A stretch of DNA of 40,997 nucleotides, from the IMG/VR virus record IMGVR_UViG_2571042438_000006; one strand, 5' to 3'. The stretch comes from a virus. Lineage: Duplodnaviria; Heunggongvirae; Uroviricota; Caudoviricetes. Both the position numbers and the translations under genes were made by a program. The notes beneath the pieces are model-generated. The model saw only the letters and a list, made by a program, of their open reading frames with translations, was not told where the DNA came from and did not search any database. Each line of letters starts with the position of its first letter. Positions within the stretch are counted from its first letter, which is position 1. This document shows, in pieces, positions 3,063 to 14,680 of the stretch.

Positions 3063-3312
3063 GGTTACCTCTGCTTTTTGAACGCATGTCACGTAACTTC
3101 TTAATGTGTTCTGCCGTTTCGATCTCTTCTGCTATCCGATCTGCATCAGCTTTATTCACAGGTTCAAAGTCATGATTAAAGCGGAACATGCTGGCGATAC
3201 ATGTTCTGCCTTTTCGGATGTAGTGAACTTTGTTGTGGGTAGAACGCAGGATTTTGCAGGGAGTGCCGTGGTGGTCGACGTACCAGGTGTTAGGAAAAAT
3301 GATTCTGAACAT
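3034..3312 (-). CDS. Hypothetical phage early-left protein
   Basis: 92-aa ORF in the int-exo accessory region; no recognised domain. Confidence 0.35.
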   Translation of the reverse strand: MFRIIFPNTWYVDHHGTPCKILRSTHNKVHYIRKGRTCIASMFRFNHDFEPVNKADADRIAEEIETAEHIKKLRDMRSKSRGNHGIIQPHTR

Positions 3313-3359
3313 TTTTACACCTCAGTTGGACGATGTTGAAATTTGCTGCTTTGAGGCCA

Positions 3360-3578
3360 TCACAGTCCCCATTGTTTGTTCTTAAGTTCGATCTCCTCCT
3401 GGCAACTTGCACAAGTCCGACAACCCTGAACAGCCAGGCGTCTTCGCTCAGCTATCGGATCGCCACACTCACAACAATGAGTTGCGGATACAGTCTGGTA
3501 GTTCTGACGACGCATTTTTATTGCTGTATTGCGCTGTAATTCTTCGATTTCTGATGCTGAATCAATGATGTCTGCCAT
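3360..3578 (-). CDS. TraR/DksA-family C4 zinc-finger protein
   Basis: 72 aa with CxxC...17 residues...CxxC (CCECGDPIAERRRLAVQGCRTCASC), the typical phage TraR-type zinc finger. Confidence 0.7.
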   Translation of the reverse strand: MADIIDSASEIEELQRNTAIKMRRQNYQTVSATHCCECGDPIAERRRLAVQGCRTCASCQEEIELKNKQWGL

Positions 3579-8674: not shown

Positions 8675-9604
8675 ATGGCAAACACTGCTGAGATATTCAA
8701 TTTTCCAGTGCCGGATGCGGCACAAAAGGAGCCGCGCGTGGCAGATCTCGATGATGGTTATACGCGCATTGCAAATGAGTTGCTGGAAGCTGTGATGCTG
8801 GCCGGATTAACACAGCACCAGCTTCTGGTCTTCCTGGCTGTCATGCGCAAAACATATGGCTTTAATAAAAAACTGGATTGGGTGAGCAACGAGCAACTGT
8901 CCGGATTGACCGGGATATTACCGCACAAGTGTTCTGCTGCAAAAAGTGTTCTGGTAAAGCGTGGGATTTTGATTCAGAGCGGGCGGAATATCGGTATTAA
9001 TAATGTGGTCAGTGAATGGTCAACATTACCCGAATCAGGTAAGAAAAATAAAGTTTACCTGAAAGAGGTAAATTTACCTGAATCAGGTAAGAAAAGTTTA
9101 CCCAAATCAGGTAAAGGCGTTTACCCGAATCAGGTAAACACAAAAGACAAACTAACAAAAGACAATATAAAACCTTTTTCGTCCGAGAATTCTGGCGAAT
9201 CCTCTGACCAACCAGAAAACGATCTTCCTGTGGTGAAACCAGATGCTGCAATTCAGAGCGGCAGCAAGTGGGGGACAGCAGAAGACCTGACCGCCGCAGA
9301 GTGGATGTTTGACATGGTGAAGACCATCGCACCATCAGCCAGAAAACCGAATTTTGCAGGGTGGGCTAACGATATCCGCCTGATGCGTGAACGTGACGGA
9401 CGTAACCACCGCGACATGTGCGTGCTTTTCCGCTGGGCATGCCAGGACAACTTCTGGTCCGGTAACGTGCTAAGTCCGGCCAAACTCCGCGACAAGTGGA
9501 CCCAACTCGAAATCAACCGTAACAAGCAACAGGCAGGCATGATAGCCAGCAAACCAAAACTCGACCTGACAAACACTGACTGGATTTACGGGGTGGATTT
9601 ATGA
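8675..9604 (+). CDS. O: Replication initiator O (lambda O-like; origin embedded in the gene)
   Basis: MANTAEIFNFP...VADLDDGYTRIANELLEA...LRKTYGFNK parallels lambda O; GGGAGG ribosome-binding site before the ATG at 8675. The ORF track begins at an upstream ATG (8585) that I consider unlikely to be used. Confidence 0.85.
   Translation: MANTAEIFNFPVPDAAQKEPRVADLDDGYTRIANELLEAVMLAGLTQHQLLVFLAVMRKTYGFNKKLDWVSNEQLSGLTGILPHKCSAAKSVLVKRGILIQSGRNIGINNVVSEWSTLPESGKKNKVYLKEVNLPESGKKSLPKSGKGVYPNQVNTKDKLTKDNIKPFSSENSGESSDQPENDLPVVKPDAAIQSGSKWGTAEDLTAAEWMFDMVKTIAPSARKPNFAGWANDIRLMRERDGRNHRDMCVLFRWACQDNFWSGNVLSPAKLRDKWTQLEINRNKQQAGMIASKPKLDLTNTDWIYGVDL
9026..9180 (+). repeat. Replication origin: four about 18-bp iterons (TTACCYRAATCAGGTAAR) followed by an A/T-rich stretch
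   Basis: Iterons at about 9026-9043, 9074-9091, 9098-9115 and 9121-9138, then AT-rich CACAAAAGACAAACTAACAAAAGACAATATAAAACCTTTTT: the classic lambda ori architecture inside O. Confidence 0.85.
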
Positions 9605-11257: not shown

Positions 11258-12784
11258 ATGAAAAAAGCCATAGCATATATGCGATTTTCATCACCAGGTC
11301 AGATGTCTGGCGACTCATTAAACCGACAGAGAAGACTTATTGCTGAATGGTTAAAGGTAAATAGTGATTATTATCTTGATACCATAACATATGAAGATTT
11401 AGGATTAAGTGCATTCAAAGGAAAGCATGCACAATCAGGAGCTTTTTCGGAATTTTTAGATGCTATAGAGCATGGTTATATATTGCCAGGAACTACATTG
11501 TTAGTTGAAAGTCTGGACAGACTTTCAAGAGAAAAAGTCGGTGAAGCGATTGAACGTCTGAAATTGATTTTGAATCACGGTATTGATGTTATAACTCTTT
11601 GCGACAATACAGTCTATAATATTGACTCTTTGAATGAGCCATATTCATTAATAAAAGCCATACTTATAGCACAAAGGGCAAATGAAGAAAGCGAGATAAA
11701 GTCAAGTCGGGTTAAATTATCATGGAAGAAAAAACGGCAGGATGCACTGGAATCAGGTACGATTATGACGGCGTCTTGTCCGAGATGGCTCTCCTTAGAT
11801 GACAAAAGAACGGCTTTTGTTCCAGACCCCGACAGGGTGAAAACTATTGAGCTAATTTTTAAACTCAGGATGGAAAGGCGCTCATTGAATGCAATAGCCA
11901 AGTATTTAAATGATCATGCTGTAAAGAATTTCTCAGGAAAAGAAAGTGCATGGGGACCTTCTGTAATTGAAAAATTATTAGCGAATAAAGCTCTGATAGG
12001 TATATGCGTACCTTCATATCGTGCAAGAGGTAAAGGAATAAGTGAAATCGCTGGCTATTATCCCAGAGTCATATCAGATGATTTGTTTTACGCTGTACAG
12101 GAAATTCGGTTGGCACCTTTTGGTATTAGCAATAGTAGCAAAAATCCTATGTTGATAAATCTACTTCGAACAGTTATGAAGTGCGAGGCTTGTGGTAATA
12201 CCATGATTGTTCATGCGGTATCTGGAAGTTTGCATGGCTATTATGTTTGTCCGATGAGAAGACTGCATCGATGTGACAGGCCATCAATAAAGAGAGATTT
12301 GGTTGATTATAATATCATTAATGAGTTGCTTTTTAATTGTAGTAAAATCCAACCAGTTGAAAACAAGAAAGATGCTAATGAAACTTTAGAGTTGAAAATT
12401 ATTGAGCTCCAGATGAAAATTAATAATTTAATTGCTGCATTATCTGTTGCGCCTGAAGTTACCGCTATAGCAGAAAAAATCAGAGTATTAGATAAGGAAT
12501 TACGAAGGGCTTCTGTATCATTAAAAACTTTGAAGAGTAAAGCGGTGAGTTCACTTGGTGATTTTCATGCTATTGACTTAACCAGTAAAAATGGGCGAGA
12601 GCTATGTCGTACACTTGCCTATAAAACATTCGAAAAAATCATAATCAATACAGATAATAAAACCTGTGATATCTATTTTATGAATGGCATTGTTTTTAAA
12701 CACTATCCTTTAATGAAAACAATATCCGCCCAGCAGGCGATAAGTACTCTCAAATATATGGTTGATGGTGAGGTTTATTTTTGA
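11258..12784 (+). CDS. ybcK: Large serine recombinase (resolvase/invertase catalytic domain, recombinase domain, zinc ribbon, coiled coil); YbcK-like
   Basis: 508 aa; N-terminal AIAYMRFSSPGQ...SLNRQ with the catalytic Ser motif; Cys-rich CEACGN...YYVCPMRRLHRCD zinc ribbon; AT-rich cargo. Confidence 0.85.
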   Translation: MKKAIAYMRFSSPGQMSGDSLNRQRRLIAEWLKVNSDYYLDTITYEDLGLSAFKGKHAQSGAFSEFLDAIEHGYILPGTTLLVESLDRLSREKVGEAIERLKLILNHGIDVITLCDNTVYNIDSLNEPYSLIKAILIAQRANEESEIKSSRVKLSWKKKRQDALESGTIMTASCPRWLSLDDKRTAFVPDPDRVKTIELIFKLRMERRSLNAIAKYLNDHAVKNFSGKESAWGPSVIEKLLANKALIGICVPSYRARGKGISEIAGYYPRVISDDLFYAVQEIRLAPFGISNSSKNPMLINLLRTVMKCEACGNTMIVHAVSGSLHGYYVCPMRRLHRCDRPSIKRDLVDYNIINELLFNCSKIQPVENKKDANETLELKIIELQMKINNLIAALSVAPEVTAIAEKIRVLDKELRRASVSLKTLKSKAVSSLGDFHAIDLTSKNGRELCRTLAYKTFEKIIINTDNKTCDIYFMNGIVFKHYPLMKTISAQQAISTLKYMVDGEVYF

Positions 12785-12895
12785 GTAATAATCACTTTTT
12801 CAACCGTGCTATAGTAAGAAAGTTAGGTAAGTACAATAAAATTATCTATCCTGAACGAAGCGTCCTGAGCTATGGTTTTACTATAGAGACTGCCA

Positions 12896-13219
12896 ATGGA
12901 TGCTGGCGTTCTCGTTCTAGCAGTTCAACAATACCCAATCACAAAACAATTCACTGATAACGAACTTTGCACACTCGCCTGGTTATGGCGAGCAGGGAAT
13001 GTGATGTTAATTACCTACCAGAACGTTACTCCTCTTCTTCAGGTTGCGGAGCATCGTGAAGCTGGTCGCTTCACTTCTATCGAGCAAGAATATCCCCAGA
13101 TACTCAATAAGGCACAGGCAATCCTTGCCAGAGAAACGGCACATGTAAAATTCCGGCCGTGGCAGGATGATAAGTGGAGTCGAGTTTTGCCGCATTTACG
13201 TTCGGATCGATTACAGTAG
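12896..13219 (+). CDS. Hypothetical protein (107 aa), no recognised domain
   Basis: ORF only; sits in the AT-rich cargo block downstream of the serine recombinase. Confidence 0.3.
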   Translation: MDAGVLVLAVQQYPITKQFTDNELCTLAWLWRAGNVMLITYQNVTPLLQVAEHREAGRFTSIEQEYPQILNKAQAILARETAHVKFRPWQDDKWSRVLPHLRSDRLQ

Positions 13220-13680
13220 ATTCCAATTAACAATGAGAAACACATAGCCACCCCGTGGTATTGAAACCATATAATGTTGGATTTGAAAACAGATCTTTTT
13301 CCATGTATTAATAACTACATCCCCGCGAGTGATTCAAAAAGGAGGGCCCAATTTTGTCCGAGTTTTTGTATTCCCCCGCATGCCGCTGCGGAGCACTACA
13401 TCTGAGTGTCTGACTAGGGGATAAAATTAGACTGGATAGTGAGAAGAAAGTGGCGTGCTAGGCTGTGCCGAGTGCTACCAGTACACCCTGGGGGTGTGCA
13501 GCTTTCGCCGAGACTGTAGTGGGTATCGGTTAATGCACGAAAAACCGAGAGGTCAGACAACCAATTTGCCGTAGGATTGTTTCCGGTGCGATACCGGTGT
13601 ACTAACTGAAAGCAATGCGAAAAAGCATAAACTCGGTCCTTCAGTCGCCCTACACACTATTTACTAAGAAGGGCTAAAGC

Positions 13681-14037
13681 ATGGATACAATTATCACATG
13701 GATGGGAGATCGTCTGTTGGGGTGGATAACAAACAAATCCGATCTGCGGCAGAGGGCAATCACTGGATTAACTCCTGCGATTTATTCAACAATTTTATAT
13801 ACTGAAAAATTAAAACGTGGTGAGCCTAATAACCCAAACGAAGAAGAAAAACTTTATAGACTTTGGTATGAAGCGTCTTCCCAAGTCGTAGACTTTGATC
13901 GAGAGCTGGCTAAAAGATGTTTAGATAAATCAGAATATTGGCTTCATTCTGAATTATATAGCCCTGAGAAAGTTGGAGAGCTAAACATTTCTTTGGTTGG
14001 TATGAAGGCAACGCTTGAAGGAATAAAGCACAATTAA
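13681..14037 (+). CDS. Hypothetical protein (118 aa), no recognised domain
   Basis: ORF preceded by AAGAAGGG about 10 nt upstream of the ATG; AT-rich codon usage. Confidence 0.35.
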   Translation: MDTIITWMGDRLLGWITNKSDLRQRAITGLTPAIYSTILYTEKLKRGEPNNPNEEEKLYRLWYEASSQVVDFDRELAKRCLDKSEYWLHSELYSPEKVGELNISLVGMKATLEGIKHN

Positions 14038-14224
14038 AACCTTTGATTTGCGATAATCAACTCGCCATAATCATGTCATCGGAGCCTGAACAACTCCGGT
14101 GACTTCTGCGCTAAACGGGGACGTTTATGCGCACACACAATCCAAACTCTCTTCTCCCTCCACAGATGCAGAAATGCACCTGCGATATATTGTATCCAGC
14201 GTTTGACCTCTGCGGAGGTGAAGC

Positions 14225-14680
14225 GTGAATCTCCCACAAGATGGCATCAAATTACATCGCGGTAACTTCACCGCTATCGGTCGGCAGATCCAGCCTTATC
14301 TGGAGGAGGGCAAATGCTTTCGCATGGTGCTTAAACCGTGGCGTGAGAAACGCAGTCTTTCCCAGAATGCACTCAGCCACATGTGGTACAGCGAAATCAG
14401 TGAATACCTCATCAGCAGGGGTAAAACGTTCGCTACTCCAGCTTGGGTAAAAGATGCTCTCAAACACACATATCTCGGTTATGAAACCAAAGACCTGGTT
14501 GATGTCGTAACCGGTGATATCACCACTATCCAGTCGTTACGCCATACCTCCGATCTTGATACCGGAGAGATGTATGTCTTCCTGTGTAAGGTTGAAGCCT
14601 GGGCGGTGAATATTGGCTGCCACCTGACTATTCCGCAGAGCTGCGAGTTCCAGCTGCTCCGCGACAAGCAGGAGGCGTAA
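14225..14680 (+). CDS. ybcN: YbcN-like nin-region protein (DUF1367)
   Basis: 151 aa, [55 protein letters not shown]..., as K-12 YbcN. Confidence 0.8.

Follow-up and report, generated by a model that had tools for sequence, protein, structure and literature searches.

The stretch of DNA analysed here (the window) comprises the 40,997 nucleotides (nt) of IMG/VR record IMGVR_UViG_2571042438_000006, a DLP12-like lambdoid prophage of Escherichia coli, and its positions 13319-13650 on the plus strand very probably constitute a gene for a structured RNA. By alignments, RNAalifold, covariation, a strand test and the lack of any Rfam match, the 332-nt RNA is formed by 18 secondary-structure helices and one kissing-loop helix, distributed over two domains (13319-13422 and 13430-13646). 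To judge from sequence comparison, it is a self-contained, plus-strand, noncoding and highly structured element that passes from one lambdoid phage to another as a single unit. The complete statement that we favour, namely that 13319-13650 is an autonomous, trans-acting structured RNA gene serving the phage or the lysogen in conflict, is in our view the probable one, though it is held with clearly less assurance than the existence of the RNA gene. A preliminary description of the window had singled out this block, which is rich in GC and free of open reading frames (ORFs), as an undescribed structured RNA, and that proposal is strongly supported by the covariation and by the Rfam result presented below.

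The element was recovered from many genomes. Pattern scans of IMG/VR and of metagenomes located it on about 65 IMG/VR contigs and 23 metagenome contigs, and look-ups of homologues of the ORF that follows it in the window (ORF2) also revealed it in prophages of Obesumbacterium proteus and Enterobacter bugandensis, so that the total set consisted of about 100 loci with 38 distinct full-length sequences. All copies measured 329-332 nt, and their identity to window 13319-13650 was 76-100%. Among 5,426 complete E. coli genomes, 159 (about 3%) carried the element, which was annotated in none of them. It was also present in the isolated E. coli phages Turner and IdasGreatGrand, at 99.8-100% identity, and in Klebsiella phages Kp4856-1 and Kp4862-1 (78%) and E. 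coli 3426, at 78-83% identity, where the genes on both sides differed. In the record of phage Turner (PP925837.1; L005 4055-4186 and 4236-4355) two coding sequences of 43 and 39 amino acids (aa), each named hypothetical protein, are annotated over the RNA; these two small calls, which lie on the element in both Turner and IdasGreatGrand, are almost certainly spurious.

The borders of the element were determined by comparing contexts. Similarity between them starts about 45-60 nt upstream of 13319 and stops at about 13650, and the flanking genes vary on either side. Near-identical RNAs (L061, L119 and L122 compared with L064 and L098) were followed by different downstream modules, which places recombination joints at the 3′ edge of the RNA. 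Outside this set the searches were empty. Among the species-representative genomes of GTDB, a three-block pattern gave no matches and a looser pattern gave 14, about the number expected by chance, none of which fitted the family profile; the family would thus be too rare to show in one genome per species. Six of these 14 loose matches (L080, L081, L083, L084, L085, and L092), each of 75 nt, came from related metagenome-assembled genomes of Actinomycetota/Thermoleophilia; they probably represent a conserved protein-coding stretch and were unrelated to the RNA family by nhmmer. Four further scans of IMG/VR with other conserved blocks yielded zero new members, and the loci that matched by a 16-mer only (L055, L056, L058, L065, L071, and L075) were discarded as coding sequence unrelated to the RNA. 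The distribution is that of a real but narrow family, belonging to lambdoid phages of Enterobacterales.

The secondary structure was derived from the alignment. When RNAalifold was applied to 23 sequences it predicted 82 pairs, and compensatory changes occurred in 13 of these. The refined model, which consisted of the RNAalifold structure with one variable hairpin adjusted and a loop-loop helix added, contained 95 pairs in 19 helices and was evaluated on 28 distinct sequences. In this model 97.3% of the cells were paired, against 34-45% when the register was slid by 1-3 columns. Double (compensatory) changes were seen in 20 pairs, against 2-6 in the slid register, and in 180 cells, against 12-19, and none of 500 column shuffles attained the observed covariation score. 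The comparative alignment advised by the preliminary description was therefore carried out with a positive outcome, compensatory changes being present in those 20 pairs. The strongest support was obtained for helices 8, 10, 13, and 18; in helix 13, six of the nine pairs covary and at least six different versions of the stem occur. Two local hairpins named in the preliminary description are part of the model, ACACCC-TGG-GGGTGT (13484-13498) as helix 12 and CCGGT-GCGAT-ACCGG (13583-13597) as the apex of helix 18.

The two domains would be tied together by the kissing helix, as its covariation indicates. The loop of helix 5 (CACUAC, 13394-13399) pairs with the loop of helix 13 (GUAGUG, 13516-13521), and three covarying versions of this contact were found (CACUAC/GUAGUG, CACCAC/GUGGUG, and CGCAAC/GUUGCG), with 98.8% of the cells paired. 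At column pair 77-202 there were 14 GC and 13 AU combinations, and at pair 79-200 there were 14 AU, 8 UA, and 6 CG. The long-range pairing of CACTACA (13394-13400) with TGTAGTG (13514-13520), formerly described as possible, is thus real and corresponds, with its compensatory changes, to this helix. There is also a candidate for a second pairing between the domains, in which GUCUGACU (13408-13415) is complementary to GGUCAGAC (13551-13558), the latter lying within the invariant block GAGAGGUCAGACAACCAA. Its 8 complementary positions were paired in 99.6% of the cells of the 28 sequences, and both sides are invariant except for C/U opposite G, so that covariation speaks neither for nor against it; the candidate competes with two short local pairings of the RNAalifold model. 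As for the CCGAG motif, the recurrence described earlier stands in the window, where 13358-13636 contains the motif four times in direct and once in inverted orientation, a local enrichment considering the 34 copies in the whole 41-kb window; it does not extend to the family, in which only the copies at 13358, 13545, and 13632 are kept. The copies at 13545 and 13632 pair with each other in helix 14.

About half of the columns are invariant, including A-rich junctions and the blocks UCCCCCGCAUGCC, UUGGAUAGUG, and GAGAGGUCAGACAACCAA, and some of the long invariant blocks are partly unpaired in the model. Invariant, partly unpaired blocks together with A-rich junctions are a typical pattern in RNAs that use their three-dimensional surface to bind a partner or for catalysis. 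The orientation was examined through the G-U pairs, of which the model has 270 cells; pairing was 97.3% on the plus strand and 87.3% on the opposite one, and this asymmetry identifies the plus strand as the functional strand.

Considering that the block might be a decayed pseudogene or a site acting at the DNA level (a recombinase target, an origin or a packaging signal), coding and context were examined as well. Two circumstances agree with such an explanation: a serine recombinase adjoins the block in the window, and the prophage is cryptic and decaying, with degraded copies such as L047, cut by an IS21-like insertion, and L101, from which ORF2 is deleted. Every frame of every member contained at least two stops, and the variable columns were spread over the three codon positions as 49/51/57, that is, without codon periodicity; together with the covariation this rules out the pseudogene reading, and the idea that the spacer is a remnant of ybcL/ybcM is refuted. 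The 20 compensatory pairs with the covarying loop-loop helix, the G-U strand asymmetry, the near-constant length, and the invariance of about half of the columns despite swapped flanking genes also speak against it, and so does the presence of the element in isolated phages deposited as complete genomes. No recombinase was found near the RNA in the other contexts examined, so that the earlier suggestion of a recombinase substrate is not supported. An explanation without an RNA already fails the covariation and strand tests, and we regard it as extremely improbable.

No known RNA was recognized in the element. The covariance-model search that had been recommended was performed with Rfam 15 (4,227 models), and it gave no match in window 12500-14500 at E up to 10; at six loci with divergent members, no hit with E up to 1 fell on the element. 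ARAGORN found neither a tRNA nor a tmRNA, and the literature, searched by sequence string, accession and keyword, yielded no description of the element. Mimicry of boxB, of a tRNA anticodon or of the sarcin-ricin loop was judged by eye and set aside for the misfit of loop sizes and variants. Inside the RNA there is a strong Shine-Dalgarno-like sequence, AAAGGAGG, with a UUG 8 nt later that opens a frame of 19 codons (window 13338-13412). This frame ends at the UGA of the invariant GUCUGAC and no synonymous-site pattern was seen in it, so it is probably not translated; binding of a ribosome at AAAGGAGG is conceivable. The invariant loop AGAGGUCAGAC has 11 nt of complementarity, with one G-U, to the leader of ybcN/ninB (14201-14211). 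This antisense target was dropped, given that hundreds of chance matches are estimated in 41 kb and that many loci bearing the RNA are without ninB.

Upstream of the RNA we located a putative sigma-70-like promoter (13283-13312, plus strand), with hexamers read from the sequence: TTGAAA at 13283-13288, a spacer of 17-18 base pairs (bp), and TATTAA/ATTAAT at 13306-13312. The putative −10 block ends 6-7 nt before the A at 13319, which is the first A of AUCCCC. Hexamer-like blocks with fixed spacing were present in every clade (TTGAAA/TTGTAT/TTGATA/TTGTTT, 17 bp, and TTTAAT/TTAAAT/TCTAAT/ATTAAT), and the upstream sequence around them was otherwise diverged. From these conserved hexamers and their spacing we infer that the RNA has its own sigma-70-like promoter. 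Abutting the −35-like TTGAAA is a near-palindrome, AACCATATGTTGTAT(A/G)GTT, at 13264-13282, which occurs in most non-Klebsiella variants and at the same position in L061, L064, L067, L070, L072, L119, L122, and L127; its symmetry is complete in L067 and degenerate in the window, and a regulator of the RNA may use it as an operator. At the other end, most variants without ORF2 had a GC stem with a U-run 4-20 nt after the last helix, and in L069 the terminator was called by the scanner at 9451-9468, 5 nt past the RNA. No terminator is present between RNA and ORF2 in the window type and in seven other ORF2-type clades.

This arrangement brings in the main rival explanation, a cis-acting leader, in which the RNA would be a long structured 5′ untranslated region that responds to a signal by regulating read-through into, or translation of, the downstream cargo ORF. 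The RNA has the same orientation as the next ORF, whose start lies about 30-55 nt after the RNA or its terminator in almost all variants, and the succession of promoter, structured RNA, terminator and ORF is a classic attenuator layout. The ORF2-type loci, where the terminator is absent and the Shine-Dalgarno sequence of ORF2 is weak, can also be accommodated, and two pairing partners are conceivable for the 3′ tail GUCGCC, namely the G-rich 3′ half of the terminators and the stretch just before the ORF2 start. Against a leader stand, first of all, its dimensions, since 332 nt and 19 helices are far above the size of known aptamer domains. The downstream ORFs are mutually unrelated: five orphan proteins without a common functional theme. 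Behind the RNA and its terminator, clades other than the ORF2 type had unrelated ORFs, of which one kind has an N-terminal membrane helix and a length of about 178-191 aa and the others have 183, 177 or 95 aa; none had a match in Pfam or PADLOC, and each was assigned to a different PHROG family or to none. Locus L057 has no cargo ORF; behind its RNA and terminator there is just an ordinary nin gene (DUF1367-like), at a distance of 111 nt. The sequence of the terminator and its spacer vary by clade and no conserved antiterminator pairing was found, the sole candidate alternative pairing being a weak one of 5 bp, GUCGCC with GGCGG, across an 18-nt loop. Finally, the recombination joints fall exactly at the 3′ end of the RNA, as expected for a self-contained unit. 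Taking into account both sides, a cis-acting leader seems unlikely to us.

ORF2 (13681-14037, plus strand) encodes a helical protein of 118 aa that belongs to phrog_12412, a family without assigned function, and its own family was small, with 21 clusters among 5.8 billion proteins. The AlphaFold model was a four-helix bundle with a predicted local distance difference test score of 80. The earlier statement that ORF2 has no recognizable domain was borne out, in that nothing significant was obtained: there was no match in Pfam, in PADLOC or in a sequence search of the PDB, and Foldseek returned no significant fold, its best E values (about 0.3-1.3) corresponding to designed helical bundles and HEPN toxins. 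Against HEPN chains the comparison was likewise not significant (Foldseek E 0.66-1.4, template modeling score 0.32-0.44), and the Rx4-6H motif is not among the invariant residues. Of the 118 columns, 44 were invariant down to 51% identity, which indicates purifying selection.

The relation between ORF2 and the RNA was analysed by comparing their loci. At every one of the eight distinct loci whose ORF2 homologue has at least 69% identity (the window, L061, L067, L117, L119, L122, L127, and L129, from E. coli, Obesumbacterium, Enterobacter and metagenomes) the RNA lay about 30-34 nt upstream and a terminator was absent between them; because of this missing terminator, ORF2 and the RNA are probably cotranscribed in the variant of the window. 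The 51%-identical homologues (L116, L125, and L126) were placed directly behind another gene and the RNA was absent. These data bear on a second rival, a two-part module in which RNA and ORF2 would form a ribonucleoprotein, or an RNA antitoxin or regulator would be combined with a protein effector, the variants without ORF2 being derived or having other partners. The layout has a precedent in type III toxin-antitoxin and AbiF-type systems, where a structured RNA gene immediately precedes a small effector gene, and the constant company of the RNA in the eight loci and the purifying selection on ORF2 are in its favor. About half of the RNA clades have no ORF2 nearby and a terminator instead, ORF2 homologues exist without the RNA, tandem repeats are absent from the RNA, and ORF2 shows no recognizable nuclease or RNA-binding fold; these four points count against a module, and its probability seems to us lower still than that of a leader. 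The preliminary description had proposed a module of the RNA and small proteins, and the part that holds is the association of ORF2 at 69% identity or more with the RNA; the RNA also occurs without ORF2, and the other small ORF of the region, ORF1, is not linked to it.

Returning to the autonomous RNA gene, the events could be as follows. Transcription of the RNA would start from a sigma-70-like promoter of its own, whose end lies about 7 nt upstream, and in most variants the transcript would stop at the intrinsic terminator, making it an autonomous RNA gene of the nin region of the kind called a moron. In the DLP12-type cassette of the window, where the terminator is missing, the transcript would run on into ORF2. 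The RNA would then act in trans as a folded scaffold, a decoy or a ribozyme, an option we prefer because half of the columns are invariant, partly unpaired blocks included. These blocks and the A-rich junctions might form a binding or catalytic surface for a protein, for another RNA or for copies of the RNA itself, and the RNA would serve the phage or the lysogen in conflict between phage and host or between phages, as other accessory cargo does at the same position.

Several observations weigh against this proposal. The role in conflict is suggested by position alone, and PADLOC found nothing in the ORFs neighbouring the RNA; the defence or anti-defence role raised in the preliminary description is conceivable. 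The proposed promoter was not called by a scanner for promoter consensus and is weak by consensus rules, because its −10 hexamer has no A at position 2. The RNA and the next ORF are always in the same orientation, and this ORF is usually within 30-55 nt and at most about 110 nt away, which would suit a cis-acting leader as well. The folding energy of the single sequence was no better than that of shuffles (z = −0.79), and the minimum-energy fold departs from the covariation model. The family is narrow, with about 8-10 clades and an identity of at least 76% among all members, so that the covariation rests on a small number of independent events. The case for a structured RNA is thus a comparative one, built on those 8-10 clades.

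By comparison with what has been described in other systems, the element is a new family within a known kind, the phage-borne structured RNA genes. It resembles GOLLD and ROOL, and also OLE, HEARO, and raiA, in being a long, multihelix, conserved noncoding RNA with loop-loop contacts that was found by conservation and covariation; with GOLLD and ROOL it further shares carriage in a prophage, phage or mobile element and an orphan function. The Rfam scans gave no match of the new RNA to any of the five. Ornate RNAs of the GOLLD/ROOL type measure about 600-800 nt, so that the new RNA, with 332 nt, is shorter, and they are found in Firmicutes or in environmental phages, whereas the new one is found in lambdoid phages of Enterobacterales. 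By cryo-electron microscopy, GOLLD, ROOL, and OLE were found to assemble via kissing-type contacts (PMC12286853). It is a tentative idea, which we think has a smaller chance of being right than of being wrong, that the element represents the first of a new class of phage RNAs with complex folds in E. coli and its relatives, either a ribozyme, a self-assembling RNA like ROOL or GOLLD, or the core of a ribonucleoprotein, giving an advantage in conflict; in the self-assembling version the kissing loop would act between molecules.

Other known systems were compared in the same way. Moron cassettes of lambdoid phages have, like the element, sharp borders, their own promoter-like element and terminator, a place in the variable part of the nin region and swapping of cargo, the difference being that the cargo here is a structured RNA and not a protein. 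Type III toxin-antitoxin (ToxIN-like) and AbiF systems also present a promoter, a noncoding RNA, in some cases a terminator, and a small protein gene in a prophage. In contrast to these systems, 13319-13650 holds no family of tandem or direct repeats, such as make up a ToxIN-like antitoxin RNA, beyond chance 9-11-mers. Directly downstream there is no conserved endoribonuclease toxin; the proteins encoded there differ from one variant to the next and lack a recognized toxin fold, and the RNA also occurs alone. Cobalamin and lysine riboswitches are similar as multihelix junction RNAs located before an ORF, with a covarying loop-loop helix and sometimes a terminator, and the same-strand ORF 30-55 nt downstream, found in nearly all variants with the exception of L057, is what a riboswitch or leader would have. 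They differ in that the new RNA is much larger and matches no covariance model; its downstream genes have no functional theme in common, and a conserved switching helix was not found. A relationship with retron/DRT-type RNAs was not apparent, since no reverse transcriptase gene was found adjacent to the RNA, or among the annotated or called neighbours, at any locus examined.

Large, intricately folded bacterial RNAs without a known function are rare, and historically such RNAs have proved to be ribozymes, ribonucleoprotein cores or riboswitches. To our knowledge, almost all known orphan RNAs are in organisms that are hard to handle. The new RNA is in lambda-like phages of E. coli and Klebsiella, isolated phages included, where deletion, complementation and phage challenge are routine, and if it does represent a new class it would be the first such orphan RNA amenable to routine lambda genetics; the three natural versions of the kissing loop invite swap tests. 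A complex-folded RNA supported by covariation was unexpected in E. coli phages and is readily testable, narrow as its distribution is. The analysis also corrects gene calls, considering that the RNA is unannotated in RefSeq and misannotated as two tiny proteins in phage records, and it indicates that RNA as well as protein is carried as cargo in the variable slot that separates the replication genes from ninB.

The gene order of the window around this slot is O/P-like replication genes, emrE, the ybcK serine recombinase (11258-12784), the cassette, ybcN/ninB, ninE, ybcO, rusA, and Q. By blastn, homology to K-12 MG1655 stops at 12823 and restarts at 14042, so that 12824-14041 (plus strand) is an alternative cargo cassette, composed of ORF1, the RNA gene and ORF2, in place of the ybcL-ybcM of K-12 DLP12. 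The preliminary description had placed ybcL/ybcM between ybcK and ybcN in K-12, correctly, since these genes fill the slot there. Its account of the letters was accurate too: the ORFs of 107 aa (12896-13219) and 118 aa are where it had put them; no frame of 13220-13680 contains an ORF as long as 60 aa (the longest ones inside it have 43, 39, and 31 aa on the plus strand and 48 and 34 aa on the minus strand); and the GC content is 0.50-0.52 at 13300-13600 compared with 0.30-0.42 in the flanks. The inverted repeat of 9 bp (12809-12817 and 12878-12886) is exact; because it straddles the breakpoint of K-12 homology at 12823, it is probably of chance origin and not a conserved unit. The 72 nt from this break to the start of ORF1 (12824-12895) are AT-rich, and an ORF of 58 aa (12781-12957) overlaps the ybcK stop in a different frame.

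ORF1 (12896-13219, plus strand) was said to have no recognizable domain, and this has to be amended, as Pfam and PHROGs identified it as a stand-alone C-terminal domain of the P22 antirepressor (Ant). The match to Pfam P22_AR_C (PF10548) had an E value of 1.1e-15 and 57.9 bits, the cut-off being 22.4, and the protein, which RefSeq names 'P22AR C-terminal domain-containing protein', is a full-length match to the 107-aa family phrog_7640. With the Ant families phrog 245 and phrog 377 it aligns only in their C-terminal parts (Ant profile positions 245-318 of 319 and 116-207 of 213), and it is without the N-terminal Bro-N/ANT-type domain of full-length antirepressors. Among the loci examined, ORF1 accompanied the RNA in the E. 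coli type only, so by this distribution it would be a neighbour not linked to the RNA family.

Some individual loci presented further features. In L047 (IMG/VR UViG_2585427737_000006, about 3066-3460) the RNA is interrupted by the insertion at about column 305 and an istA-like ORF begins 59 nt past the break, which makes it a naturally disrupted allele; L101 is a degraded locus. Klebsiella phage Kp4856-1 carries, about 3.6 kb downstream of the RNA (L004 8010-8205), a full-length match to the known small RNA family STnc100 (RF02076, 88 bits, E 5.5e-18). The start region of ybcN/ninB, TTTGACCTCTGCGGAGGTGAAGCGTG (14201-14227), is conserved in loci of the E. coli and Klebsiella types, and it can be folded as ACCUC-UGCG-GAGGU, hiding the Shine-Dalgarno sequence.

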